Shown in pieces: positions 6,131-55,994 of a stretch of 64,000 nucleotides of DNA. The stretch spans positions 191,751 to 255,750 of the forward strand of contig JAYPJF010000002.1 of assembly GCA_038128225.1 (NCBI GenBank), given 5' to 3'. This DNA is from a bacterium (GTDB lineage: Bacteria; Patescibacteriota; Minisyncoccia; Phycocordibacterales; UBA2100). The position numbers and the translations under genes are program-made. A model generated the notes under the pieces. It was not told the DNA's origin. It worked only from the letters and a program-made list of their open reading frames with translations, and did not search any database. Every line of letters begins with the position of its first letter. Position 1 is the first letter of the stretch.

Positions 6131-7462
6131 CTACACGGGTAAATTAGGCGGTGCCTCTGATTTTGTTGCAGGAATCCGCTCAAGCCCCGGTGCTCGTATC
6201 GCACGACTCGGGAAATGGAAAATCGTTGCTAATTCCTCGGTCGTCATAACAAAATGCTGTTTCTTGTGAGGTGGATGGAACCATGAACGCCGGCGATACG
6301 CATCAAAAAGTTTTTTGCGTGCCTTATCTTCTGCGCCTCCAAGTTTCTGCCAGGGAAAATTAAAAACTGTCATGCCGCCAGTCGGCACTAATGAATTGAG
6401 ATGCGCTGAACTAAACTGCTTAAAAATGCCAGTCATGCCCACAAAACTCGGCGCACGAAACGCATCTTTTTCCGCAATATAGATCGCACGTATACCAGTA
6501 TCAAACGCCTGCTTGTCGAGACTCCGCCCAATTGCTTTGATTCGTTCGATGTCAGAGGGGGTTGGATTAGGAAATCCTCTCGCTTTCTTGCCCTCTCCGA
6601 CATCATACTCAATCACGCTCGCGTCGCGAATTTTTTGTATCTCTTGTTTCGCTTCAGTCTTCCACCGATCTTCTTTCTCAAACCACGAGACCTTCTTTGT
6701 TTTCGGGTCAACTTTTGGAATCAAATCTTTATTGGTACGAATAAGCACCTGAATCCAAATGCGCTCACCGGGCTTGAGGGTGCTTAGATGCTCGAACAAA
6801 TGCGCGAGTGGATCCACTTTAAATTCTTCCTTAGGATCTTTATCAAGCTCATAGTCGATGTATGTTTTGATTGGGTAGACATCTTTTTGTCCAAGCTTAA
6901 AATCACACCCCCACAAATTGTACTGAGTCGTATTGTATGGAAACTGTTTTGCGTAATCGGGAACGACGAATATTTCTACCTCAGGATACTGCGCATAAAT
7001 TTGCGCCTCGACGATGTCTTTAAGAAATTTGCGTGTCCACACATAAAAATGAATACGCCCTCCTTCTGAAACTATTTCAAACGAATACCAGGGGCGAACT
7101 TTCCCATAAATAAAAAGGTCGATAAACGTGCCTTCGCCCATACCAATGTGAAGCCCAGCAAAGGCAAGCTCCATTGCCCGCGGTGACTTTTCAATGTCGC
7201 GCGGCACTTTGACCTCAAGCAAAATCATTTCCTGTGATGCGATAAAACGTGCCCGCAAAGACCACAAACGGAGATGCCATAAAATAATCGCCAGCAATAG
7301 AGGGAGCCAAGCGGGCGCAGAAACAAACAAAAAACTCAAAATGCCAAGCGCAAGCTCTGGAAATGTAAGTGCGAGACCCAAAAGTCCTCCCAAAAAAAGT
7401 ATGGCGATACTATGTAAACCCTTGATACCAAAACCTTCAAGTGTTTTTATCAGTGACTCCAC
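6131..7462 (-). CDS. Hypothetical multi-pass membrane protein with a large soluble domain
   Basis: 443-aa ORF with an N-terminal cluster of TM helices. No confidently recognised domain. Confidence 0.4.
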   Translation of the reverse strand: MESLIKTLEGFGIKGLHSIAILFLGGLLGLALTFPELALGILSFLFVSAPAWLPLLLAIILWHLRLWSLRARFIASQEMILLEVKVPRDIEKSPRAMELAFAGLHIGMGEGTFIDLFIYGKVRPWYSFEIVSEGGRIHFYVWTRKFLKDIVEAQIYAQYPEVEIFVVPDYAKQFPYNTTQYNLWGCDFKLGQKDVYPIKTYIDYELDKDPKEEFKVDPLAHLFEHLSTLKPGERIWIQVLIRTNKDLIPKVDPKTKKVSWFEKEDRWKTEAKQEIQKIRDASVIEYDVGEGKKARGFPNPTPSDIERIKAIGRSLDKQAFDTGIRAIYIAEKDAFRAPSFVGMTGIFKQFSSAHLNSLVPTGGMTVFNFPWQKLGGAEDKARKKLFDAYRRRSWFHPPHKKQHFVMTTEELATIFHFPSRAIRAPGLERIPATKSEAPPNLPV

Positions 7463-7522
7463 GCATCTATGATAGCAGAGTTTGTGCGCACAAACGCGTA
7501 GCGCACGTGTATCTGTGAGAAA

Positions 7523-8548
7523 TTACACGAGTTCGTACAAACCGTCGTCATTGCGACGAAACGGACCGTTTTGAAGATTCACCAAAATCGTCGCGTCTTT
7601 AACGTAGCGCTCTCGCTTTACGCGCTCAATCAACTCTTCACGAGAAAGCGCGCGTCCCTCGCGTGCGAGTACCCCGCGAATGACATCGCGAACAACACCC
7701 GGTTGATACCCCCACTCAAGGAGTGCATACAAGCCACGTCCCACAAGTACAAAACGTGGGTCTTTAATGAGCTCGTTGTGACATGTTGCTGGATGTGCTT
7801 TGCGACCAAAGAGTTTTTGAATCGCTGCAGCAACTTCCGTAAAATGCATTGGAGAGCCATGTCGCTTGAGCGCAAGGTACGCGAGATCACGCATACTTTT
7901 CACGCGTACATACGGAGACGATGCCCTGCCCCACTCGCCCAACGGATTGCGTCCAAGGCGTTTGGTGATTTCGAGCCAGCGTTGCAATACTTCAGGAGAT
8001 TGTTTTTTGACAATACCTGCTTTCGTGAGGCACGCGCCAAACTGTTGCATAAAATCTTCTTCGGGAATCAGGTGGTCAGGATCAACCGCCTCGTGCAAAT
8101 CGCGTAATGCCCCCTCGACTCGCGTCGCAAGGTCTTCGTTGACATGCCAGCGGCGCACAAAGTGATCATCTTCGCGCGCGTCCACAAACGGGTGGCCCAC
8201 AGTAAGCAAAAAGATCACATGATTGCGATCTTGGGGGTTTTTTGCGACTTCTTGAACGAGGCGACGCTCTGAGATTACGCCCCCGAGTACTTCTATTTGT
8301 TTTTCGAGCTCCGTAATTTCACGCTCATGCGCCTTATATGCAGCCGAATCACGAATGGCGGAAAGGCCATGATTCTCTATTTGGCGAACACGTTCGCGTG
8401 TAATGCCCAAATCCGAGCCGATTGATTCCAATGTCCGTACGACATTGTCTTTATCGAGTCCAAACCGCGCGACCAAGACCCCCCGCGAACGCTCGGGCAA
8501 ACCTGCCAGCAATTCTTTTGTAACTGAACGAGGTGAAAATGTAAGCAT
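7523..8548 (-). CDS. Sigma-70 region 4 (HTH) domain protein with an uncharacterised C-terminal domain
   Basis: LESIGSDLGITRERVRQIENHGLSAIR is a region 4.2 helix-turn-helix. No region 2 is present. Confidence 0.5.
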   Translation of the reverse strand: MLTFSPRSVTKELLAGLPERSRGVLVARFGLDKDNVVRTLESIGSDLGITRERVRQIENHGLSAIRDSAAYKAHEREITELEKQIEVLGGVISERRLVQEVAKNPQDRNHVIFLLTVGHPFVDAREDDHFVRRWHVNEDLATRVEGALRDLHEAVDPDHLIPEEDFMQQFGACLTKAGIVKKQSPEVLQRWLEITKRLGRNPLGEWGRASSPYVRVKSMRDLAYLALKRHGSPMHFTEVAAAIQKLFGRKAHPATCHNELIKDPRFVLVGRGLYALLEWGYQPGVVRDVIRGVLAREGRALSREELIERVKRERYVKDATILVNLQNGPFRRNDDGLYELV

Positions 8549-8701
8549 ACTTGATAGGTATCGTAATACCGTGGGATAATTTGTAAAGCTTTATCACACA
8601 AAAGTCAAGTGCTACGGGTATGCACGCATTATGCACATTATGTGCATCTATGCACGTTTTAGGTCGACTGGCCAAAATATGACCCGTGATAGAATCAGCA
8701 A

Positions 8702-10111
8702 ATGGCAAAAGCAGCACGTACTCCTCCCCAGGATCTTGAGACAGAAAAGATTCTGCTTGGAGCACTCATGTTGCACCCAAATGCGATGTATGAAGTAGTT
8801 GACCTCATATCGCCTGACGCATTTTATGCCCCAAAACATCGAACAATTTATGAAGCGATGCTTGCGCTCTCCGAAAAAGGCGAACCAATTGACTTTGCAC
8901 TCGTCGCGGCAAAAATTGCAGAACGGAAACAACTTGACCAAATCGGAGGCCGTGCATACCTTTCCGAACTTATCGCCCAAGCGCCGTCTGCGGTGCATGC
9001 CGGTAATTATGCCGGTGTCATCCAATCGAAAGGTGTCTTGCGCAACCTCATTGAAGTAGCCGATGAAATTAGCGGACTTGGGTTCTCAGAGGAGCGTCCG
9101 ATTGACGAAGTATTGGATGAAGCTCAGTCAAAAATCTTCAAAATATCAAACCGCGTCGGCCTCAAATCATTCACGTCGCTCTCACAAGAACTCCACGAAA
9201 CATGGGAACGAATCGAGCGTTTAAGCCACACAAAAGACGGCCTTCGGGGGGTACCAACGGGCTTTACTGCGCTCGACAATAAACTTGCAGGGCTGCAAAA
9301 TTCCGACCTCATTATTCTTGCTGCACGCCCTTCGATGGGTAAAACATCGCTTGCGCTTGATATTGTACGGCGCGCCGCACTCGAACATAAAATACCTGTT
9401 GGCTTTTTCGCGCTTGAAATGAGCGCGCAGCAACTTACTGAACGTATGCTCGCCGCCACTGCACATGTTGATGCGTGGCGCCTGCGAACCGGCAAAGGGC
9501 TTTCGGCGACTGACTATGAAAATCTGCAACATGCGATTGGTATGCTCGACGAGGCGCCGATTTATATCGATGATAACTCGACAAACACTGTACTTGCGAT
9601 GCGCTCAGTTGCCCGTAGATTGAAAGCCGAAAAGGGATTGGGACTTATTGTTGTTGACTACCTCCAGCTTATTTCGTCGGCATCGTCACGCCCAAACGAC
9701 AACATCGTGCAGCAAGTCACGGAAATTTCACGCGGTCTTAAAGCAATGGCACGCGATCTTGATGTTCCAGTACTCGCCCTTTCACAGCTTTCCCGTGCCG
9801 TTGAACAGCGCGGAGGTCGCCCTCGTTTGTCAGACCTCCGTGAATCGGGAGCCATCGAGCAGGACGCAGATGTTGTTATGTTCATTCACCGTGAAGACAA
9901 AGACAAACGGTATCATGAAGCCGAGTTTGAAAATGGCCACGACTCGTTTAAGAGCGATACTGTTGATGTTGATATCATTATCGCAAAACACCGTAATGGT
10001 CCTGTTGGCACCGTGCGGCTTAAGTTTCGCGATAACCAAGCGCGTTTCGAGTCAGTTTCTGAAGATTTTAGCGACGCTTCGGCTGAAGCTGCGGTTGATA
10101 TTGCAGACTAA
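8702..10111 (+). CDS. dnaB: Replicative DNA helicase DnaB
   Basis: DnaB N-terminal domain plus RecA-like core with Walker A (ARPSMGKTS). 469 aa. Confidence 0.92.
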   Translation: MAKAARTPPQDLETEKILLGALMLHPNAMYEVVDLISPDAFYAPKHRTIYEAMLALSEKGEPIDFALVAAKIAERKQLDQIGGRAYLSELIAQAPSAVHAGNYAGVIQSKGVLRNLIEVADEISGLGFSEERPIDEVLDEAQSKIFKISNRVGLKSFTSLSQELHETWERIERLSHTKDGLRGVPTGFTALDNKLAGLQNSDLIILAARPSMGKTSLALDIVRRAALEHKIPVGFFALEMSAQQLTERMLAATAHVDAWRLRTGKGLSATDYENLQHAIGMLDEAPIYIDDNSTNTVLAMRSVARRLKAEKGLGLIVVDYLQLISSASSRPNDNIVQQVTEISRGLKAMARDLDVPVLALSQLSRAVEQRGGRPRLSDLRESGAIEQDADVVMFIHREDKDKRYHEAEFENGHDSFKSDTVDVDIIIAKHRNGPVGTVRLKFRDNQARFESVSEDFSDASAEAAVDIAD

Positions 10112-45040: not shown

Positions 45041-45113
45041 TCCGCGGTAGCTCAGTCGGTAGAGCGGCTCGCTGTTAACGAGTTGGTCGTAGGTTCGAAT
45101 CCTACCCGCGGAG
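45041..45113 (+). tRNA. tRNA-Asn (anticodon GTT); CCA is encoded at 45114-45116
   Basis: TCCGCGG/CCGCGGA acceptor, anticodon loop CTGTTAA and T-loop GGTTCGAATCC. Confidence 0.85.
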
Positions 45114-46814
45114 CCAGTTAGGAATAGAGGCGGCGAAAGCTGCCTCTTTCCTTTTGGTGTAGCCCTTCTTTTCAGGTTCGAGCGTAGCAAGTAGCTGTTT
45201 CTGGTCCCGAAGCTCGTTTTCAATGAGCAAATACGGGTGCAGCCTTTCAATGCTTAGTTTTTTGTCCTTAAGGGTTAGGTTCGAGCCGATGGTTGAAAAT
45301 ATCTCCCGTTTCTTCTGTAACGGAGCGTCTTCGTTGAAATGTCTTTTCGCAAAGGCACAGAAATTGAACGTACGTTCAGCAACGGCGAGGTCATGGTCAA
45401 ACTTCTCTCTAGTACCACCCATTTCTTTTTCAATGCGCGTTCGCTCCGTGACTAAAGCTTTTTTCTCTTGAGCAAATTCATCGGGGGTATACAGCTCGTG
45501 GTGAGAATTCTGTGGTGAGGTAAATATCTTGCTCAAATTAGCAAGCCTTGTTTGGCAGTCATCATATGCCGCCTGAAGAGACACGCGCACCGTCTTCTCT
45601 TCTTTAGTAGAGGTCTTCTGCTTTTCCTGAAGGTAATCGAGGGCTAAGGTTAGGTAATCCTCATCAATGGTAATTTTCTCAAGCTCCTTGTTGAATTGTG
45701 ATTCTAGGTCTTCTACACGCACATGCTTTTGCGTGCAGTCCCGATTCTTTTTCTTGGTGCAGTGATAGTAAACATATTTCAAAATGACAGGATTCTGCAT
45801 TTCGGAAACGTCAGTCAAACATTTCGGGCAATCAGTCCTGTTTTGACTTGAAAACTTGAATTTGCAGTTTGAGCAAATAATCTGATTTTTCTCTTCAGCC
45901 GTGATGGTCGAATCACATTCACCGCAGCGCATTAGACCTGTGAAAGCGAACTCGTGGAGCTGCATTCGAGGCTTACCTTTCTTGCCTAAAAGAAGCTGCG
46001 CACGCTGATACTCCTTTTCAGTAATCATTGGAGGATGATTACCTTTTATCATTTTCTCTTCGCCAGTTTCAGGGTCTGTCCAAGGAAAATAGCCGTAATA
46101 AAAAGGGTCTTTTAGGATGTTGTACATGTGGCTCATCGTAGGAGGATTGCCACCAATCTTCCTGTGCTTGAGGGTTCTCAAGCCCCACTCGTTTATTGCA
46201 ATGTCACGAATCTTGGAAACAGGATAGCTTCCCGTAAGAAAGAGGTCCCATATTTTTCTCACCAACTCAAAACGTTCTGGGTCCGCAGCAATAGTTTTGC
46301 TGCCTTTTTCAGTGCCAACGTTGATATATCCAATCGGACCACCTGAAGGTCGCCAACCGCGTTGAGCTTTACTGTTCAAACCACGTTTAACAACTCTCGA
46401 AAGTCGCATGACGTAATCTGTCGCACGACCACTCTCTATACTCATCAGAAGCCCCGCGTCCTGCGGATAATACGAGCGTGTAGGAGTTTTTATAACTTTA
46501 ATAACCTCATTCTGCAGCATCCACTGGAGCCTGCCGCTATCAATGGGATTTCGAGAAAGACGGTCTACGTCCCAGCAAATTAGCGCGTTTGCCTCTTCGC
46601 GCTCGATACGCTCAAGCATTTGATTAAAGACACTTCGACCAGGGGCTTTCGCACTGCGCTCTTCAGTAAAAGGTTTTGCGACCAACACCAAACTCTCTCG
46701 CTCGCACTGCTTTTTGAGCGCTCCGATTTGGTCGTCTATGGATGCAATCTGGCGTTGAGAATCCTCGGAACTTTTACGACAGTATGCAAAGAATTTAAGA
46801 GTTTCCGTTTTCAT
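45102..46814 (-). CDS. Large serine recombinase (resolvase/invertase N-terminal domain, recombinase domain, zinc ribbon)
   Basis: YCRKSSEDSQRQ catalytic Ser motif. About 570 aa with a C-terminal Cys-rich zinc ribbon and coiled coil. Confidence 0.85.
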   Translation of the reverse strand: MKTETLKFFAYCRKSSEDSQRQIASIDDQIGALKKQCERESLVLVAKPFTEERSAKAPGRSVFNQMLERIEREEANALICWDVDRLSRNPIDSGRLQWMLQNEVIKVIKTPTRSYYPQDAGLLMSIESGRATDYVMRLSRVVKRGLNSKAQRGWRPSGGPIGYINVGTEKGSKTIAADPERFELVRKIWDLFLTGSYPVSKIRDIAINEWGLRTLKHRKIGGNPPTMSHMYNILKDPFYYGYFPWTDPETGEEKMIKGNHPPMITEKEYQRAQLLLGKKGKPRMQLHEFAFTGLMRCGECDSTITAEEKNQIICSNCKFKFSSQNRTDCPKCLTDVSEMQNPVILKYVYYHCTKKKNRDCTQKHVRVEDLESQFNKELEKITIDEDYLTLALDYLQEKQKTSTKEEKTVRVSLQAAYDDCQTRLANLSKIFTSPQNSHHELYTPDEFAQEKKALVTERTRIEKEMGGTREKFDHDLAVAERTFNFCAFAKRHFNEDAPLQKKREIFSTIGSNLTLKDKKLSIERLHPYLLIENELRDQKQLLATLEPEKKGYTKRKEAAFAASIPNWLRG

Positions 46815-47082: not shown

Positions 47083-48225
47083 TTAAATATCATCAAAAAT
47101 CGAATTTTCTTCTGTGGGAGATACTATCCCTGCAAGGGCTTCCTCCTCTTTAGGCAAGAAGTAGGAATTCTGCTTACCAACCTTTACGGAATTAATTTTG
47201 CCTAAAAGAACTAGCTCTCGAAGCGCCTGGCGAACATTCTTTTGACCCGCATCTTTTTTAGTGATTTCAAGTAGCTCGTTAGTTGTTCGCATCTCGCCTG
47301 AAGAGAGAACATCCAATATCAGGGATTTGGCGGTCTCTTTCTTGTTTGCATCTTCTTCAATTTCACCTAGGTAGTCGAACTTAAAGACAGTACGACCGTC
47401 CTCCACGCCATCGGTAATCTTCACCGCAAAAGGCTTTATTTCGCTCCCTAGGCGATTTTTACGCTGATAGAAGTGTGTCTCCCCAGACACTTCATCTTTC
47501 CTGAGCATGAGGAGTGTTTCTACACTCGCTACCTTGTCTTGAGAACCAAAAAGCTGCTCTTTTTTTGGTATTTTTCCTTCAAACTGCTGATTCTTGCGTA
47601 GGTGTTCTGTGAATATGACCGACACGCCAGAATTTTTCAGAATCTGGAACTTCTGGAAGAAATGCCGTACTTCTTCTGCCTTTTCTTCGCGCATCCCGCC
47701 TGTGGCAGGACGGAAGGTATCAATGATGAGAACATCAATTTTGTTCTTAAGGATATAGTTCAGAAGCCAACGGTATTTCTTATCTTCTTCGCCCGTACCG
47801 TTCAAATTAAAATCATCCTCATTGAGGATAAAAAGGTTTTCATTTGAAGGGTCAAATTTCATCATTCGACCTCGCCTCTGCATTTCGCTCACTGCCATTT
47901 CCAGATTTACATACAGAACTCTGCATTTTTCAGTTTTGAATCGTGTATCCCCAAACCAGGGTGTACCTGTTGTAAGGCACTCCGACAGATGCATTATGGC
48001 TATAGACTTTCCTTCACCAGAAACAGAAGCCACGATTGATACGCCTTCTTTTGGGAAAAGGTCTTTAACTAGCCATCGGTCATCTGGGAAAGAAAGCTTA
48101 TCTATGTCCGCCCAAAGCACAGGTTCAGGCTGTTTGCGTTCCTCGCGCACAAAATCCCATTCGCGCGGTGCGCCACCTAGACTTTCGATATGCTCTTCAA
48201 GCTTTTGCCATTTTTCTTCCTGCAT
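47083..48225 (-). CDS. RecA-like P-loop ATPase of the RepA/AAA_25 type with C-terminal winged-helix
   Basis: Walker A SGEGKS and Walker B DVLIIDT. Domain order typical of plasmid/ICE RepA-like helicase loaders. Confidence 0.55.
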   Translation of the reverse strand: MQEEKWQKLEEHIESLGGAPREWDFVREERKQPEPVLWADIDKLSFPDDRWLVKDLFPKEGVSIVASVSGEGKSIAIMHLSECLTTGTPWFGDTRFKTEKCRVLYVNLEMAVSEMQRRGRMMKFDPSNENLFILNEDDFNLNGTGEEDKKYRWLLNYILKNKIDVLIIDTFRPATGGMREEKAEEVRHFFQKFQILKNSGVSVIFTEHLRKNQQFEGKIPKKEQLFGSQDKVASVETLLMLRKDEVSGETHFYQRKNRLGSEIKPFAVKITDGVEDGRTVFKFDYLGEIEEDANKKETAKSLILDVLSSGEMRTTNELLEITKKDAGQKNVRQALRELVLLGKINSVKVGKQNSYFLPKEEEALAGIVSPTEENSIFDDI

Positions 48226-48406: not shown

Positions 48407-48867
48407 CTGCCGTATCTTGAAAATAGCAATCCGTTATATAAAAGAGAATCCCAATTCTAGGATTCTTTTTTAAAAAATAATGTAGGAAAAAAATAATTAG
48501 TATCAACTCAATATGTCTTAAATATTGGGTCAGTACTAAAACACCTCAACTTAATATCTGGTCAGTATTTTCTTAGTACTAAGCACTTATGCACAGATTT
48601 TCCATGTTCCAAAATACTTTCTTCCTTAAGGCAAGAGTGATTGCTATTTGGGACGAAAATCAGGCATAATGGAAAGACAACTGAATATTGGCTCGCAAGA
48701 GCAGCGACCTAAACCGTCTGAAAAGGCGGCATGGTCGAGGAATCGCGTTCAACATAAAAAACCCGTTATTAGGGCGTTGAACGCGTTATGGAGGGAAACT
48801 TCCATAGAGGTCTTCGGACCTTCCTAGTAGCGGGCTTTTTGTTTGGTTGCTTATCAAAGAAACCAAA

Positions 48868-49119
48868 TATATGTCATTTCTTTTACATGCGTTGCAGGCA
48901 CTAGGTCTGTATCTTCTTTACGGCAAAATCTCTGCCCTTTTATGGTGGGGATTGCTTGCCCTTTTCGTGGCTTTCTATTTTGCAGGAAAAACCTACTACA
49001 ACGTATCGGATTCAGACGACCAAAAGGTAAAAGCTTTTTGGTATCAGATTCGGTCTCTCGTATTTATTACTGATATCGTTTCAGTGTTAGCTCTATATGG
49101 CTATTTCTTCCTACGATAA
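48868..49119 (+). CDS. Hypothetical small membrane protein
   Basis: Three hydrophobic helices. Lies immediately upstream of the 804-aa gene. Confidence 0.3.
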   Translation, partial: YMSFLLHALQALGLYLLYGKISALLWWGLLALFVAFYFAGKTYYNVSDSDDQKVKAFWYQIRSLVFITDIVSVLALYGYFFLR

Positions 49120-49173: not shown

Positions 49174-51588
49174 ATGAAAGGCACCGCAAACGTAAAACTT
49201 AGACCTCTGAAATTTGCCTTTTTGGTGAATCCAAATGATTCTAAAAGTCTTGCGCGTGCTTTGGAACTCAACGCTTCTTTATGGGGTGGCAGTTACAACC
49301 CGATAATTCCAACTTTCAATCGTATTCCAGCAGTTTGGCGTAAACGTGGAGATGTTTTTGGACACACAGGTAAAACCATCCTCAAGGGGTATATTGATGC
49401 CTTTAACCCAGACTTTCTGGTTCCACTGGGTGACTGTAAAAAAATGAAGCTTGATGATTTTGGTCGTGATGTAGTTGATGATAAAAATCTTGAGGTAAAC
49501 ACCGCAGACGGAACACCAAATTACGGTGTGGGCATTTTTGAAGTGCTGAAAGGCTTTTTCGATAAAGAACTGAAATTCAAAAGACGATATCCAATAAATT
49601 TTATTTTTCCTATTCTTCCTAAAAAGAATAGGCTTTTTTATCAGAGCATCTTTGGATTACCTTCTAAAGAAATACAAGATGTTCTTGTTGAACATTGGCG
49701 AGAACCGCTTGGCGCTACAGATAAAGAGATAGGCTTTGAGAACTATCTTACTGAAATGCTCGCTTATTATCCAAGAAAGCTGATGCGGTTTGAGATTGAA
49801 GCTTCAAATCGTTCGGGTTGGCAGAAAGGTGAATGCATATTTTTAATGGACGCAAGCAATAATCACGACATTATTGATTATTGGAACCTAAGAGCTAATG
49901 GCTGGTCGGTGCTGCCCGTTGCCATTCAAGGCATGCATCTTGATGCGGTAAAAAACGAGGCTCAAAAATTCATCGAGGAGACTTCGGGTGTTAGTAGGCA
50001 CAATACTCAAATTTATTATCACGCCAATTTGATGAAGGCGCGAAGTGTAGATGAGAAGCATGTAAAAGATTTTGCCGCCTCGCTTTCTCCTAAGCCTGAC
50101 GAAAAGGCACGAGGTTCACGATTCTCAATTCAAGCTTGGTATCCGCGAATGTGGGATGAGTGGGCACGCCATAAAGATGGAGTTGGATTTTGTGAAGTCG
50201 AGAGCAAGTCTAAAAGCTATGACTTTAATGATGAGTCTGATGAGGTTTCGGTAAAAACAGTAGACCCTAAATTTGCTTTTAGGTTCGGAGGACACAACAG
50301 TTATTTTAGGTTTGCGAATGACGTTGCGACTAATAACTACAGTTACGATGACCTATATGCTGATGTGATACCTGAAGGTGGAGAACATCTCACCCGCGCA
50401 CTTAGCTCAATTCATTTTGATGAATGGCGTTTTTCCAAAAGAGGAGCCACTTACATGTCCAAATTTAAAGGTTGGACCATTCATATAAAAGTTCCGAAAG
50501 CAGAAGATGTTTTTACAGCCTGGATGAAAGACCAAGGTCTAGAAATAAACCTGTCTGCTCCAGGGAAAATAGCCAAGCAGATGATAAAACACCTGGGAGG
50601 CATACACGGTACAAATACCCTCGCTAACGAGCACATGATTGCTCTCCTGAAGAACATGGAGTCGGGCAAAGAAATGAATAAGGACCAGTTTTGGGGTGAA
50701 ATATCCAAAGTGGCTTCAACCAGAACCTTTAGGCAAGATGCATCAGAACTACTGAAACATTACGTTGAGAAAAAAATGTTTCAGCTAGGAGTTACTCTTC
50801 AGTGTCCAACCTGCACGCACAGTTCTTGGTACGACATTAAAGCTCTTAATTATGTCGTTACATGTACGAACTGCTTGGAGGAGTTTAATATCCCCACCCA
50901 TTCGCCTAATGATATTAAATGGGCGTACAAAACAAGCGGACCTTTTGGACTTCCTAAAAGAGCAGAAGGCGTGTATCCCACACTTCTAACTTTGCGCATT
51001 TTCTCTTCTCTTTTTCACCATAGCCCAATAACTCCGATGCTTAGTTTTGAAACTAAAATCAAAAATGTGGCGATGGAAGTTGACCTTGGTTTATTTTTCA
51101 GGAAATCTCAATTTAGAGAGGAGGACGAAACACGAGTTATTTTTGCTGAATGCAAATCTGAAAACAGCTTTGCTAAAAGTGATATAGATAAGATGAAATT
51201 AATCGCCGAAAAGTTCCCTGGTGCTGTATTGGTATTTGCGACTCTTAAGGAAGAGCTAAACTCAAAAGAAGTTGCTCTACTCAAACCACTTGTAAATAAA
51301 TGCCGCCGATATTACAAAAACGAGGAGCCTTATAACCCAGTAATGATTCTCACCAAGACAGAATTGTTTTCTTCTTGGGATTTGAATCAGACCTGGAAAG
51401 AAAAAGGCGGTAAATATGCCCCCTTCGGCGACAGACACTATTACGGCGATGAGTTGCTTAGCGTGTGTGATGCAACGCAGCAACTATATTTAGGCATGAA
51501 GCCTTGGAATGATTTTATACACGAGCAGTTTGAAAAGAGGAGGAAAAAGAAAGCATTAGCAACACCAGGAACGGCGCTAAACCCGTGA
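49174..51588 (+). CDS. Large orphan protein (804 aa) with central CxxC...CxxC zinc ribbon and C-terminal PD-(D/E)xK-like motif
   Basis: CPTCTHSSWYDIKALNYVVTCTNC zinc ribbon. EVDLGLFF...RVIFAECKS fits hhD...ExK. No match to any family I recognise. Confidence 0.45.
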   Translation: MKGTANVKLRPLKFAFLVNPNDSKSLARALELNASLWGGSYNPIIPTFNRIPAVWRKRGDVFGHTGKTILKGYIDAFNPDFLVPLGDCKKMKLDDFGRDVVDDKNLEVNTADGTPNYGVGIFEVLKGFFDKELKFKRRYPINFIFPILPKKNRLFYQSIFGLPSKEIQDVLVEHWREPLGATDKEIGFENYLTEMLAYYPRKLMRFEIEASNRSGWQKGECIFLMDASNNHDIIDYWNLRANGWSVLPVAIQGMHLDAVKNEAQKFIEETSGVSRHNTQIYYHANLMKARSVDEKHVKDFAASLSPKPDEKARGSRFSIQAWYPRMWDEWARHKDGVGFCEVESKSKSYDFNDESDEVSVKTVDPKFAFRFGGHNSYFRFANDVATNNYSYDDLYADVIPEGGEHLTRALSSIHFDEWRFSKRGATYMSKFKGWTIHIKVPKAEDVFTAWMKDQGLEINLSAPGKIAKQMIKHLGGIHGTNTLANEHMIALLKNMESGKEMNKDQFWGEISKVASTRTFRQDASELLKHYVEKKMFQLGVTLQCPTCTHSSWYDIKALNYVVTCTNCLEEFNIPTHSPNDIKWAYKTSGPFGLPKRAEGVYPTLLTLRIFSSLFHHSPITPMLSFETKIKNVAMEVDLGLFFRKSQFREEDETRVIFAECKSENSFAKSDIDKMKLIAEKFPGAVLVFATLKEELNSKEVALLKPLVNKCRRYYKNEEPYNPVMILTKTELFSSWDLNQTWKEKGGKYAPFGDRHYYGDELLSVCDATQQLYLGMKPWNDFIHEQFEKRRKKKALATPGTALNP

Positions 51589-51830
51589 AGACCTCGAACT
51601 TGACACATTTTGACAACCCTCCAGTAGACAAAGTAAAATATGAGGACAGTATGATGACGCGAGAGAAATTTCTGACCCTTAAGGAAGTTGCGAAAATTCT
51701 GCGTGTCAGCGAGAGGTCAATTTTCCGTTATATTCACGGCGGCAAGTTGAAGGCAAGCAAAATTGGGTACTGGCGAATACGCGAAAAGGACCTTGAGGAC
51801 TTTCTCGCAAAGAACCGCGCTTCAAAGTAA
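51585..51830 (+). CDS. Excisionase/MerR-like HTH (HTH_17) DNA-binding protein
   Basis: LTLKEVAKILRVSERSIFRYI helix-turn-helix. GTG start overlaps the upstream stop. An alternative Met start lies near 51651. Confidence 0.55.
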   Translation: MKTSNLTHFDNPPVDKVKYEDSMMTREKFLTLKEVAKILRVSERSIFRYIHGGKLKASKIGYWRIREKDLEDFLAKNRASK

Positions 51831-51834
51831 CAAT

Positions 51835-52767
51835 ATGAAAACGGCAACTGCATCAAAAATGACAATCAACAAGAAACCTGCAAAGAAGGCGGCAAAAAAG
51901 ACGTACAAAATTATTGACCTTTTTGCGGGTATCGGCGGCTTTCACATTGCTTTCCACAATCTCGGCGTAGAAACAGTTTTTGCGAGCGAATGGGACGAGC
52001 ACGCACGTAAAACTTACGAGCACAATTTCAAGAAAATTACGCCTTCTCTTTTTGAGAACGGAAACTTTGCAGGCGACATCACAAAGGTAGATGCGGCTTC
52101 AATCCCTGATTTTGATATTTTGACCGGCGGTTTCCCTTGCCAGCCGTTCAGTCAGGCGGGTTTCAAAAAAGGTTTTTCTGATGTGCGCGGGACACTTTTC
52201 TTTGACATCGTTCGCATCATTGATACAAAACGCCCAGTCGCTTTCTTTATTGAAAATGTACGTCATCTCCTCAACCACGATGACGGCAAAACCTTTGCGA
52301 CAATCAAAAAAGTAATTGAGGAGGACTTGGGGTACTCTTTCCACGCAAAAATAATAAAAGCGTCCGACTTCGGCTTGCCGCAACACCGACCTCGCCTGTA
52401 TATGGTCGGTTTCCGTGACAAAAAAATACCTTTCAATTTCCCTGAACCGATACCGCTTCAAGCGAGTATGTCTGATGTATTCGGAGCACCCGTGAACAAA
52501 AAAGTGGGTTATACCCTCCGACTTGGCGGCCGCGGTTCTGGTCTGCACGACCGCAGAAATTGGGATACTTACCTCGTCAAAGGAAAGGCCCGCAGATTGT
52601 CACCGAAAGAAGGAAAGAAAATGATGGGCATACCAGACGATTTTGAGTTTCCTGTGTCAGAAGCACAGGCAATGAGGCAACTCGGCAACAGTGTCGCTGT
52701 AAATGCGATACAGGCCACTGCCGCGGAAATTATCAACTCACTCAACAACTACTATGGCAAAAGGTAA
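51835..52767 (+). CDS. DNA (cytosine-5)-methyltransferase
   Basis: Motif I DLFAGIGGF, motif IV GFPCQPFS and motif VI ENV. C-terminal QLGNSV. Confidence 0.9.
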   Translation: MKTATASKMTINKKPAKKAAKKTYKIIDLFAGIGGFHIAFHNLGVETVFASEWDEHARKTYEHNFKKITPSLFENGNFAGDITKVDAASIPDFDILTGGFPCQPFSQAGFKKGFSDVRGTLFFDIVRIIDTKRPVAFFIENVRHLLNHDDGKTFATIKKVIEEDLGYSFHAKIIKASDFGLPQHRPRLYMVGFRDKKIPFNFPEPIPLQASMSDVFGAPVNKKVGYTLRLGGRGSGLHDRRNWDTYLVKGKARRLSPKEGKKMMGIPDDFEFPVSEAQAMRQLGNSVAVNAIQATAAEIINSLNNYYGKR

Positions 52768-53833
52768 TAAAGGCGAATGGAGTGAGTTCTATACGTTCCT
52801 GAAACTGCTTGCAGAAAAGCAGTTGAACGGTGCGGACGAAAATCTGCAAAAGATAGAGGATATTTTCTATCCGATTTTGAAAGTAATCCGCGAAGAAGCA
52901 ACGGGCAGAATGGATTACGAACTTGCCGAAAACAACAAAGTGAAGGTTGTGCAAACAGGTACAGAAGTCGCCCTCGTAGATGCTTCGGACCTCAAGTCGA
53001 AAGTGGTCCAGATATTTCAGACAATACGCGACAATCAGGATACTACTTTTGAAATCCCAGAAGCGGACGAACTGATGACTCGGTTCCATTCAAAGAAGTT
53101 GAGCGCTGGTAACTCTCACAAGGAAGACATCACTCTCAAAATTCACGACCGTATTACGGGCGCAATGCCGGAAGTCGGGTTCAGCATCAAATCAATGCTC
53201 GGTGCGGCATCCACACTTCTCAACCCTTCCGCCGCAACCAACTTTATTTACAAAATCTCGGGCCTTGATGAGAGTAAGATAGACGAAATAAACGCAATTG
53301 ATACTCGCTCAAAAGTACGTGACCGTCTTTCAGCAATTGTTGCGGCTGGCGGCAGTTTCTCCTATGCGGGCATCAGTTCAGATACGTTCACAAAAAACTT
53401 GAGGCGGGTGGATACGGTTCTGCCTGAAATAATGGCGCAGCTTCTTCTTGCCTTCTATCTCGGTAAGGGCAACGGGTTGCCAGACCTTATTTCAAATTTG
53501 GGTGACGGAGAAACCAACATTCTCACCTTCACGCTGGACCGCTCCGATTACGAGTTCAAGGTCAAAGGTCTCTTGCACAATGTAGCCCTCGGAATGGTGC
53601 CCGATACCGCTTGGGACGGCCTTATACGCGCTCACGGGGGCTATATCATCGTCAGGGAGGACGGAGAGGTGGTCTGTTACCACGTCTACAACGCAGATGC
53701 TTTCAGGTCTTACCTGTACAAGAACACCCGATTTGATACCCCCAGCACGACCCGCTACGGGTTCGGGAAGGTCTACAAGGAAGGCAACGACCTTTTCATG
53801 AAACTGACCCTGCAAATCAGGTTCATCAGATAA
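52754..53833 (+). CDS. Type II restriction endonuclease (HpaII-family-like) paired with the C5-methyltransferase
   Basis: Overlaps the methyltransferase stop by 14 nt. N-terminus MAKGNKGEWSEFYTFLKLL resembles R.HpaII-family proteins as I recall them. Confidence 0.5.
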   Translation: MAKGNKGEWSEFYTFLKLLAEKQLNGADENLQKIEDIFYPILKVIREEATGRMDYELAENNKVKVVQTGTEVALVDASDLKSKVVQIFQTIRDNQDTTFEIPEADELMTRFHSKKLSAGNSHKEDITLKIHDRITGAMPEVGFSIKSMLGAASTLLNPSAATNFIYKISGLDESKIDEINAIDTRSKVRDRLSAIVAAGGSFSYAGISSDTFTKNLRRVDTVLPEIMAQLLLAFYLGKGNGLPDLISNLGDGETNILTFTLDRSDYEFKVKGLLHNVALGMVPDTAWDGLIRAHGGYIIVREDGEVVCYHVYNADAFRSYLYKNTRFDTPSTTRYGFGKVYKEGNDLFMKLTLQIRFIR

Positions 53834-53837
53834 AAAT

Positions 53838-54251
53838 ATGGCGGACCGCATCTCACAATCACAGCGGTCAAAAAATATGGCCGCAGTCAAAAGCCGCGGC
53901 AATAAAACCACGGAGCAAAAACTTCTCGTTCTTTTGAGAGAAAATAAAATTACAGGTTGGCGCAGGCACTACAAGAAACTTGCCGGCACACCCGACTTTG
54001 CCTTTCCTAAACGGAAGGTGGCGGTCTTCGTTGACGGCTGTTTCTGGCACGGGTGCGAATGCTCAAGTATTCCTAAAACAAACAGAAAGTTTTGGAAAGA
54101 GAAGATAAATGGAAATATCAAAAGAGACAAACTCGTGGTTTCACTGCTACGTAAAAAGGGATGGTTTCCAATCCGCATCAAAGAACATGAATTCAAAAAT
54201 AATAAAATACCCACCAACCTTTTAAACAGACTTGGTGTTAAATACGGATGA
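53838..54251 (+). CDS. vsr: Very short patch repair endonuclease Vsr
   Basis: FVDGCFWHGC motif and about 137 aa. Located downstream of the C5-methyltransferase and endonuclease. Confidence 0.85.
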   Translation: MADRISQSQRSKNMAAVKSRGNKTTEQKLLVLLRENKITGWRRHYKKLAGTPDFAFPKRKVAVFVDGCFWHGCECSSIPKTNRKFWKEKINGNIKRDKLVVSLLRKKGWFPIRIKEHEFKNNKIPTNLLNRLGVKYG

Positions 54252-54330: not shown

Positions 54331-54758
54331 TATTTTTTAACTTAATACTAAGTCAGTACTACGCAGCTCTGGCACATAAAAATCGTCCGAGTTATCCTGA
54401 ATCCACGTTCGGATTGCCTCAACGGTGTGGAGCTTGGTAACGCTTGGGATTTCTTGTGAATCGTTGTTTGTCGCCTTTAAGTGTCTATACTTAGTGCATG
54501 ACAAACAATGATGTAGAACTTGTAGATGTGGTTGATGAGAAGGGCAATGTTTTGGAAGTAGTGCCTAAACCGGACGCTCATAAGCGGGGGCTTCTTCACA
54601 AGACAGTAATGGAGCATTACGCAACGACTATCTCTGAGGCCGATAACTTCAAATACCGATTATTTCTTTTTAGTTTCGCCCGCTAATATTGACATACTGT
54701 CGTATCTGTGATATCGTTAGTGCGGCTATCGTGTCCTTTAGATATTGGGAGAAAGCAA

Positions 54759-55194: not shown

Positions 55195-55230
55195 GAGAGC
55201 CGCCTGGCTTCGGTCGGGCGGTTTTCATTT
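55195..55230 (+). terminator. Rho-independent terminator
   Basis: gccgcctggc-ttcg-gtcgggcgg hairpin followed by TTTTCATTT. Confidence 0.6.
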
Positions 55231-55428
55231 GGCTAAGTCGGGAATGTAAAAGTACCCCGAATGTGTCTGGAAATAGGTTCTGACTTCAGACACAATGTGG
55301 AGCAAACGATTTTTAGTTTTAACAGAGCCGCTTTATTTTTAATCCGTGAAGAGAGTAGTAGAGTCGTAGCCTCGACAATTTTTATAAGTAAAGTATAACG
55401 AATTTGGCAACAGTTGGAGGACGCACCG

Positions 55429-55932
55429 ATGTCAGACAAAGGAATGGTTGAGAACGCTCGCGAGGCGGGCAAGCCAGCGCAACAGCCTGGCGATCGAGAA
55501 CTTTTGCTTCAGGTCGTAATGTTGCAAACAATGCTGAACTCGAAAATGTTTGAGTTTATGCGCGAATATCAGCAGCAAGACAACTGGGGAACCGACCGAG
55601 CCTTATTCCGAGATGGGTCTGGCCGCAAAACAAAGGTAGCTAATTTATTCGATGAGGTGAACCGGGTTGGTTGCTTGTTGAGTGAGGCCGTCTCCGCGTT
55701 TGCAGGAGAACGACTGTACGAAAAGCGAGATGAGAACGGCCGGGTAGTTGCCTTTTGCACAGTATGCGAAAAAGAAACTCCTTTCAGAAGGGAAATCGAC
55801 TCCCCTTACGGAATGCTTGAAGCGTATTTTCGTGATTGCGAACGACTCGTATGCACGATTTGCGATCGCGATACGATCTATCCCGGCGATGAACGGTTGC
55901 CTAGACTCAACTCGATCTTTCGTACCAGGTAG
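55429..55932 (+). CDS. Hypothetical protein with C-terminal zinc ribbon (CTVC...CTIC)
   Basis: GGAGG RBS 8 nt upstream. A terminator follows. Confidence 0.4.
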   Translation: MSDKGMVENAREAGKPAQQPGDRELLLQVVMLQTMLNSKMFEFMREYQQQDNWGTDRALFRDGSGRKTKVANLFDEVNRVGCLLSEAVSAFAGERLYEKRDENGRVVAFCTVCEKETPFRREIDSPYGMLEAYFRDCERLVCTICDRDTIYPGDERLPRLNSIFRTR

Positions 55933-55962: not shown

Positions 55963-55994
55963 CCGCTTGGCATCTGCCAGGCGGTTTTCTTTTT
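55963..55994 (+). terminator. Rho-independent terminator
   Basis: ccgcttggca..tgccaggcgg stem followed by TTTTCTTTTT. Confidence 0.65.

Follow-up and report, generated by a model that had tools for sequence, protein, structure and literature searches.

What does a large gene that matches no known family do on an integrative island of a probable Candidate Phyla Radiation (CPR) bacterium? The window analyzed here is a stretch of 64,000 nucleotides (nt) from a patescibacterial genome (GenBank assembly GCA_038128225.1, contig JAYPJF010000002.1, positions 191,751 to 255,750 of the forward strand). The gene in question, at 49174–51588 on the plus strand, encodes a protein of 804 amino acids (aa), and was originally predicted to be an orphan nuclease-type effector and a plausible candidate for an undescribed single-gene anti-phage or abortive-infection system. 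We conclude, with a probability of roughly 0.58, that it encodes a self-contained, horizontally mobile DNA endonuclease, most likely a one-gene, restriction-like defence system.

The 804-aa protein belongs to a widespread, unannotated family

The open reading frame (ORF) is uninterrupted from its ATG to the stop codon at 51586–51588. It is the largest ORF within a low-GC stretch of the window (∼45–53 kb), where the GC content falls to 0.39–0.46 vs. ∼0.50 in the remaining window (0.41 for the gene itself), which confirms the size and the AT-rich setting first described. That the whole gene encodes one multidomain protein is supported by the ORF call, by full-length homologues and by an AlphaFold model.

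No match for the protein was found in Pfam-A (E ≤ 0.01), PADLOC-DB 2.0 (E ≤ 1), NCBIfam, PHROGs or the PDB sequences, weak signals of the zinc ribbon (Elf1-like and YnfU-like families, and Zn_ribbon_4) excepted. A profile built from 45 family sequences retrieved nothing from the PDB sequences, and six sub-regions scanned singly against Pfam (E ≤ 10), as well as distant members scanned alone, yielded weak zinc-ribbon matches at most. The plasmid-borne members are named "hypothetical protein" by the NCBI pipeline. The claim that the protein fits no recognisable family, be it a known defence or a housekeeping one, therefore stands. The label "orphan" is apt in the sense of unannotated, but not in the sense of solitary, because thousands of full-length homologues were found.

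A word-indexed search returned 441 homologues. The best 120 of them were nearly all full-length (∼800 aa, 37–83% identity, few truncated entries) and came from Patescibacteria, Margulisiibacteriota, Poribacteria, Rokubacteria, Chloroflexi and Gammaproteobacteria. An exhaustive profile search of 1.84 billion representatives detected 3,820 clusters (50% identity) at E ≤ 1e-3 and 1,051 at E ≤ 1e-30, and almost all of the top 150 clusters were 750–890 aa long and matched end to end. A remote full-length member of 768 aa, encoded by a Bradyrhizobium barranii plasmid, aligned over 692 columns with 20% identity (hhalign probability 99.9) and kept all motifs. Over-length family members showed no recognisable fused domain.

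When genomes were scanned at one per species, 367 of 185,579, or ∼0.2% of species representatives, carried the gene; the scan was pattern-based and the figure is a lower bound. The carriers are spread over many phyla, and those in culture include Methylobacter tundripaludum SV96, Legionella massiliensis, Bradyrhizobium sp. Pha-3, Dyella flava, Rhizobium giardinii H152 and a Luteimonas strain. The gene was present in none of 50,697 phage records and in one of 2.9 million IMG/VR contigs; with the gene nearly absent from both collections, a phage origin was rejected.

The invariant residues mark a predicted nuclease centre and a zinc ribbon

An AlphaFold2 model computed from the 45-sequence alignment reached a mean predicted local distance difference test score (pLDDT) of 87 and a predicted template modelling score (pTM) of 0.82, and seven segments, all encoded on the plus strand, were drawn from its secondary structure. 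In the C-terminal third of the model a zinc ribbon (residues 535–588, positions 50776–50937) packs on a PD-(D/E)xK (restriction-endonuclease-like) nuclease domain (residues 589–735, 50938–51378). C-terminal helices with conserved Q769 and L773 follow (residues 736–804, 51379–51585), the last 9 residues being disordered.

The modelled nuclease domain has the alpha-beta-beta-beta-alpha-beta core of the PD-(D/E)xK fold. E635 and D637 (codon 51082–51084) are placed on beta-2, and E659-C-K661 (codons 51148–51156) on beta-3, within the motifs EVDLGLFF (residues 635–642) and FAECKS (residues 657–662). The structural matches listed for this domain include NucS, AspBHI, LlaBIII, EcoT38I, MspJI, BspD6I, HindIII, HamA, SfsA and VRR-NUC, and the closest ones also include Can1/Can2/Card1/Cdn1. 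The restriction-endonuclease-like fold that had been read from an hhD…ExK motif is thus supported by the structure prediction and by the structural matches. In the zinc ribbon, C544-x2-C547-x16-C564-x2-C567, the cysteine pairs C544-P-T-C547 and C564-T-N-C567 sit on beta hairpins (predicted strands 536–543, 550–554, 561–563 and 570–572). The two CxxC pairs originally reported are present, but the spacer between them measures 16 residues rather than 17.

Eleven residues were invariant when 109 cluster representatives, only 27–44% identical to the query, were aligned: R10, P11, W37, P324, the four cysteines C544, C547, C564 and C567, and D637, E659 and K661. Among the 45 closer homologues D637, E659, C660, K661, C544, C564 and C567 were invariant, and C547 was conserved in at least 90%. 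The putative catalytic D/E/K residues, whose conservation was at issue, are therefore invariant in both sets. E635 is also conserved in at least 90%, and D670, E699 and E730 are, like it, further conserved acidic positions of the nuclease domain. Of all segments, the nuclease domain, the zinc ribbon and the first N-terminal lobe had the lowest column entropies. Across the whole family, the strictest conservation falls on D637/E659-x-K661, the predicted catalytic residues, and on the four predicted zinc ligands.

The front half is predicted to be a two-lobed module with its own conserved motifs

Upstream of the zinc ribbon, four segments were distinguished in the model. Residues 1–140 (49174–49593) would form a first alpha/beta lobe of Rossmann/flavodoxin-like type, and residues 141–342 (49594–50199) a second alpha/beta lobe, for which Pfam gave no match even when it was scanned alone. 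A beta-rich domain with near-invariant P365, N382 and P400 follows (residues 343–441, 50200–50496), and then a helical domain (residues 442–534, 50497–50775) with a conserved LSxxGxIAxQ...LGG segment, in which S461 and G464 are conserved. The median net charge of the helical domain is +3, and in the model it is possibly a helix-turn-helix (HTH)-like DNA-binding element.

Two near-invariant motifs were recognised in the lobes. The first reads L-W37-G-G-x-x-N-P-x-x-P plus P79-D80, and the near-invariant residues of the first lobe are G38, G39, N42, P46, P79, D80 and G118. The second, in the second lobe, comprises D226, D232-x-x-D-Y-W-N-L-R-A (232–241) and Y-P324-R-x-W. The structural matches of the N-terminus were weak and consisted solely of two-lobed alpha/beta folds (PBP-I/LacI, racemase-like); CARF, SAVED, SRA, TIR and Toprim were not among the matches listed for the front half. 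As modelled, the front half consists of two generic three-layer alpha/beta lobes in an arrangement without a solved relative.

The gene moves alone into defence islands, plasmids and type I operons

The neighbourhoods of the homologues were compared at 81 non-redundant loci with up to 10 kb of flank per side, and the 1,036 flanking ORFs were clustered all-against-all. The most frequent flanking family occurred in at most 7 of the 81 loci, and we therefore conclude that the gene has no obligate partner. Sizes and orientations of the flanking genes, as given by a simple gene caller, varied freely.

The recurrent neighbours were subunits of type I restriction-modification (R-M) systems (HsdR at 7 loci, HsdM at 6 and HsdS at 5), tyrosine integrases (7 loci), large serine recombinases (5 loci), N6/N4 methyltransferases (4 loci) and Schlafen/AlbA_2-HATPase_c_4 proteins (4 loci). 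Serine recombinases or tyrosine integrases were close by in at least 12 loci. At 5 of the 81 loci (L003, L021, L022, L032 and L035) the gene is embedded in a type I R-M operon, shares its strand and lies 9–84 nt from hsdM or hsdS. The hosts of these five are phylogenetically distant (Margulisiibacteriota, two different Gammaproteobacteria, Acidobacteria and Nitrospirales), and the window is not among them. Examples of the gene order are hsdR-hsdM-X-hsdS in L003 and hsdR-hsdS-X-hsdM in L035, where X is the homologue.

Single loci show other company. A nucleotidyltransferase, a PIN protein and a methyltransferase stand beside one homologue; HEPN_Swt1, GmrSD and an Hsp70-like ATPase beside another; a pPIWI-associated nuclease, a Tsp45I R-M system, AbiU2 and an integrase beside a third. 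At a plasmid locus the neighbours are an "abortive infection" protein, DUF2971 and PrlF/YhaV. Bulk scans of the 143 immediate neighbours were headed by R-M components, Schlafen, AAA_15/AAA_21, DUF1156, Fic, SRAP and transposases for Pfam, and by mad2, mad5 and type I subunits for PADLOC.

A type ISP-like methyltransferase was found near the homologue at six loci, four of them in Poribacteria. It is ∼1,000 aa long, consists of N6_Mtase and Type_ISP_C without a nuclease or helicase part, and at five loci (L018, L024, L043, L054 and L058, mostly Poribacteria and Legionellaceae) lies convergent and directly downstream of the homologue. The PADLOC mad2 matches among the neighbours probably stem from this protein.

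The GC content of the gene was below that of the distant flanks in 50 of 53 loci (median difference, −5.6 points), and members were found on plasmids of Photobacterium damselae (pWMD-P3-2; WP_341509620.1) and Bradyrhizobium barranii (pCC829_2; WP_231145838.1). These data show that the gene spreads alone and horizontally, reaching defence islands, integrative elements and plasmids as well as positions inside type I R-M operons. The occurrence of homologues in defence or mobile contexts, across many phyla, bears out that part of the original prediction. Three outcomes had been named in advance as speaking against a single-gene system: a confident match to a known family, no conservation of the D/E/K residues, and homologues never found in defence or mobile contexts. 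None of them was seen, and the gene remains a plausible candidate, although its anti-phage activity is something we infer.

Neighbours and small elements of the island in the window

The neighbours of the gene are those originally described. At the left edge of the island is a tRNA-Asn gene (45041–45116, +). A large serine recombinase gene (45102–46814, −) runs into it with its 3′ end, and the stop codon of the recombinase gene lies inside the tRNA. An AAA_25 replication-type ATPase with PHROG matches to primase/helicase follows (47083–48225, −). The same overlap of a serine recombinase gene with a tRNA 3′ end recurs in two further CPR loci that carry a homologue, L001 (3134–3207/3167–4759) and L010 (5899–5971/5933–7633). 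Since this arrangement is common to the window, L001 and L010, the gene is cargo of a tRNA-targeting serine-recombinase element family in these bacteria. The three independent CPR islands suggest that such a family exists, with the element providing the tRNA 3′ end. As marks of the right end of the island, neither a displaced tRNA-Asn 3′ fragment nor long direct repeats were found, and megablast of the island vs. E. coli genomes gave no match.

L001 (Patescibacteria metagenome-assembled genome, JAWVGZ010000004.1) is another serine-recombinase island, with an HTH_3 regulator. A 1,270-aa PIN-TPR-GreABC protein is encoded there at 6132–9944, 56 nt upstream of the homologue, and the locus illustrates how conflict-system cargo can be stacked in a CPR genome.

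An 82-aa ORF with two strongly hydrophobic segments in its hydropathy profile (48871–49119, +) ends 54 nt upstream of the 804-aa gene. The small membrane gene is real, but it is not a conserved partner: tblastn of the 82-aa ORF vs. 88 loci gave matches only in an identical contig (L088) and, as a 22-aa remnant, in the closest relative (L008). The ORF was rejected as a partner, being absent beside the other homologues save for this remnant.

Downstream of the gene, an HTH_17 protein is encoded at 51585–51830 (+). A near-consensus promoter-like site, TTGACA-18-TAAAAT, occupies 51610–51639, and the true start of the HTH_17 protein is most likely the ATG at 51651. It is followed by overlapping or tightly packed ORFs for a C5 DNA methyltransferase, an HpaII-family endonuclease (Pfam E 5.7e-112) and Vsr, a mismatch endonuclease (51763–54251, +). 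These form a complete HpaII-like module, a second, independent defence cargo on the island. Because the HTH start lies behind its own promoter-like site, we consider the HTH, R-M and Vsr genes a separate unit. They were rejected as functional partners of the 804-aa protein, as they do not stand beside other homologues (the identical short contig excepted). The R-M/Vsr context from which a defence island was read is therefore present, but as separate cargo. The HTH_17 protein could be an excisionase/recombination directionality factor for the serine recombinase, or the controller of the HpaII-type R-M module.

Small elements were also recorded. The Rfam LOOT RNA (RF03000) matches full-length at 48706–48822 (+), with 75.6 bits vs. 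a gathering score of 46.4 (E 3.9e-13). It is intergenic, between the divergent replication genes and the small ORF/804-aa gene pair; the region 48640–48850 has a folding z of −5.4, and the host element is here the serine-recombinase integrative element of a probable CPR bacterium. A regulatory tie between LOOT RNA and the family was not supported, the RNA being absent from seven other CPR loci. An 18-nt iteron-like repeat, AATATTGGGTCAGTACTA, and its variants occur at 48521–48538 and 48553–48570, in the rep-proximal intergenic region, and at 54344–54361, directly past vsr; the copies may serve an element protein as binding sites or mark the right end of the island. Further along, a 31-nt GC-rich hairpin with a T-run is present in two copies (55200–55230 and 55963–55993) that are 81% identical and 763 nt apart, probably a repeated intrinsic terminator flanking a 172-aa ORF (55414–55932).

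How the protein would act, and what else it might be

A nuclease that has neither a cognate methyltransferase nor an antitoxin must be held off host DNA, and its N-terminal module is therefore the obvious candidate for control. In the reading that we favour, the N-terminal ∼440 residues (the two alpha/beta lobes and the beta domain) would act as a sensor or regulator that restrains the nuclease from host DNA. Conserved polar residues are present on the first lobe (R10, N42 and D80) and on the second (D226, D232, N238 and R240). The helical domain and the zinc ribbon would position the DNA, and cleavage would be licensed only upon recognition of a non-self feature by the N-terminal module. In its preferred version that feature would be a property of the invader DNA itself, such as modified bases or an unusual DNA form, and the protein would provide a type IV-like restriction that complements the methylation-based systems located with it. 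We favour this version because nesting in methylation-based systems mirrors TgvAB and BrxU, and because enzymes of the MspJI/AspBHI type share the logic of a reader plus a nuclease. TgvAB is a precedent as a type IV system lodged in a type I R-M operon (PMC11411939).

Several points weigh against a defence endonuclease of this kind. Neither SRA, EVE, PUA nor another known modified-base reader was detected in the protein, and structure comparison and a Pfam scan gave no identifiable relative of the N-terminal module, whose sensor role we infer. The link to defence through genomic context is qualitative, and of the neighbours at the 81 loci many carry no annotation. PD-(D/E)xK domains are found also in repair, recombination and transposition proteins. 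At some loci the neighbours are ordinary metabolic genes, e.g., GH30 in Methylobacter.

The nuclease might instead serve abortive infection: the N-terminal module would bind a phage protein or a small molecule and free a non-specific nuclease, host and phage DNA would be destroyed, and the infected cell would die. The sole, if weak, structural matches of the N-terminus are clamshell folds, which are classic ligand binders; both lobes bear conserved polar residues; the ligand-activated effectors Can1/Can2/Card1/Cdn1 are among the closest structural matches of the nuclease domain; and abortive-infection and toxin-antitoxin genes are among the neighbours. On the other hand, no CARF/SAVED fold was found, no signal-generating enzyme is conserved nearby, and the computed results do not separate an abortive effector from direct DNA sensing. 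An infection-triggered abortive nuclease is nearly as plausible as type IV-like restriction; taken as an account of the gene, it is a possibility to be held tentatively. A narrower proposal, which we regard as doubtful, makes the N-terminal 440 residues a new receptor, a two-lobed clamshell plus a beta domain that gates the nuclease upon a small molecule or a phage protein. By analogy with PrrC, which guards EcoprrI, one possibility is that such a receptor acts as a "guard" sensing anti-restriction attack on the surrounding type I R-M system.

A selfish or element-maintenance nuclease, either a homing-type endonuclease that cuts empty sites (e.g., within hsd operons) or an enzyme for the replication, transfer or competition of its carrier element, would fit the repeated solo insertion into otherwise intact operons, the low GC content and, in the window, its place on a serine-recombinase island with a replication module on one side and cargo on the other, as well as the related CPR loci with the same recombinase/tRNA arrangement. 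We think it unlikely, for most loci show no recognisable element backbone beside the gene, the insertion sites are diverse rather than one target, and homing endonucleases do not typically comprise 800 aa in seven segments with a large conserved half outside the nuclease. Still less probable is an orphan type II/IIS-like restriction endonuclease whose host is protected by a methyltransferase encoded nearby or elsewhere. The restriction-endonuclease fold and the C5 methyltransferase in the window would agree with it, and a DNA methyltransferase of a recurrent family lies within 5 kb at 13 of the 81 loci. However, most loci have no recurrent methyltransferase, conservation does not extend to any single methyltransferase family, the recurrent ones at the 13 loci are of three unrelated kinds, each belonging to another system, the methyltransferases nearby are parts of complete type I, type ISP-like or type II systems with nucleases of their own, and the one in the window is paired with the HpaII endonuclease and Vsr. 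That the protein is a housekeeping repair or recombination nuclease of the NucS/RecB-like kind is scarcely credible, given its presence in so few species representatives scattered across many phyla, the lack of conserved synteny, its foreign composition in 50 of 53 loci, and its carriage by plasmids and islands.

Implications

If members of the family protect against phages or plasmids, they would constitute a one-gene immune system of wide distribution that goes entirely unseen by current annotation and defence-finder models. The family makes up at least 3,800 sequence clusters and spans many phyla, its carriers being found among CPR bacteria, Legionella, Bradyrhizobium, Methylobacter and Photobacterium. 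The N-terminal half would, given such protection, define a new sensing module, and if the new-receptor proposal holds, the family would represent an immune effector that acts without a partner, is activated by a signal and senses through a novel domain. The repeated insertion into type I R-M operons would add another test case for immune genes nesting within each other. A compact, self-contained and conditionally active DNase might also be useful as a tool. The predicted catalytic and zinc-binding residues to be mutated are already defined, and cultured source organisms have been identified.

Comparison with known systems

Its predicted fold and its motifs place the protein in the PD-(D/E)xK superfamily, with a zinc ribbon in addition. 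The family resembles several known systems, but differs from each. Like MspJI and AspBHI, the 804-aa protein combines an N-terminal non-catalytic module and a C-terminal nuclease of the restriction-endonuclease fold in a single polypeptide; it is about twice as long, carries a zinc ribbon ahead of the nuclease and shares no sequence similarity with them. As with type IV enzymes in general, there is no cognate methyltransferase, no methyltransferase family being conserved beside the gene; in contrast to them, SRA, DUF262 or another known reader domain was not detected. Like TgvAB and BrxU/GmrSD, family members are found next to or inside methylation-based systems (PMC11411939); the setting of a defence gene between hsd genes, exemplified by TgvAB, applies to the five operon-embedded loci.

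Shedu (SduA, DUF4263) shares with the family the one-gene format, the sensor-plus-nuclease logic and a sporadic distribution in defence islands. The 804-aa protein has no match to Pfam DUF4263 (E ≤ 0.01 for the whole protein, E ≤ 10 per domain) or to PADLOC SduA (E ≤ 1), its N-terminal fold is different and it has a zinc ribbon; moreover, the architecture is fixed in this family, whereas the N-terminal sensor of Shedu is variable. When compared with Can1/Can2/Card1/Cdn1, the type III CRISPR ancillary nucleases, the N-terminal model has no CARF match and the protein no sequence similarity, and the loci show no CRISPR or cyclase context. With neither a CARF/SAVED sensor nor linkage to a cyclic-oligonucleotide synthase, membership among the CARF/SAVED-nuclease effectors was rejected. 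The minimal AF1548/NucS-type proteins of the same fold are ∼180–250 aa long and lack the 590-aa N-terminal extension and the zinc ribbon.

Three further assignments were rejected: a classical type II R-M endonuclease, for lack of a conserved adjacent cognate methyltransferase; the MADS system (mad1–mad8), for lack of a PADLOC match, only the downstream HTH_17 protein resembling mad1 (8e-10), with mad2 or mad5 matches occurring among the neighbours of homologues elsewhere; and the Hma-embedded candidates HEC-01 to HEC-09 (Payne et al.), whose architecture does not fit. We found no description of the family, of its fixed architecture of seven segments or of its N-terminal fold in the sequence libraries and literature searched, and the kind of system to which it would belong, a stand-alone sensor-plus-nuclease defence protein, is a known one.

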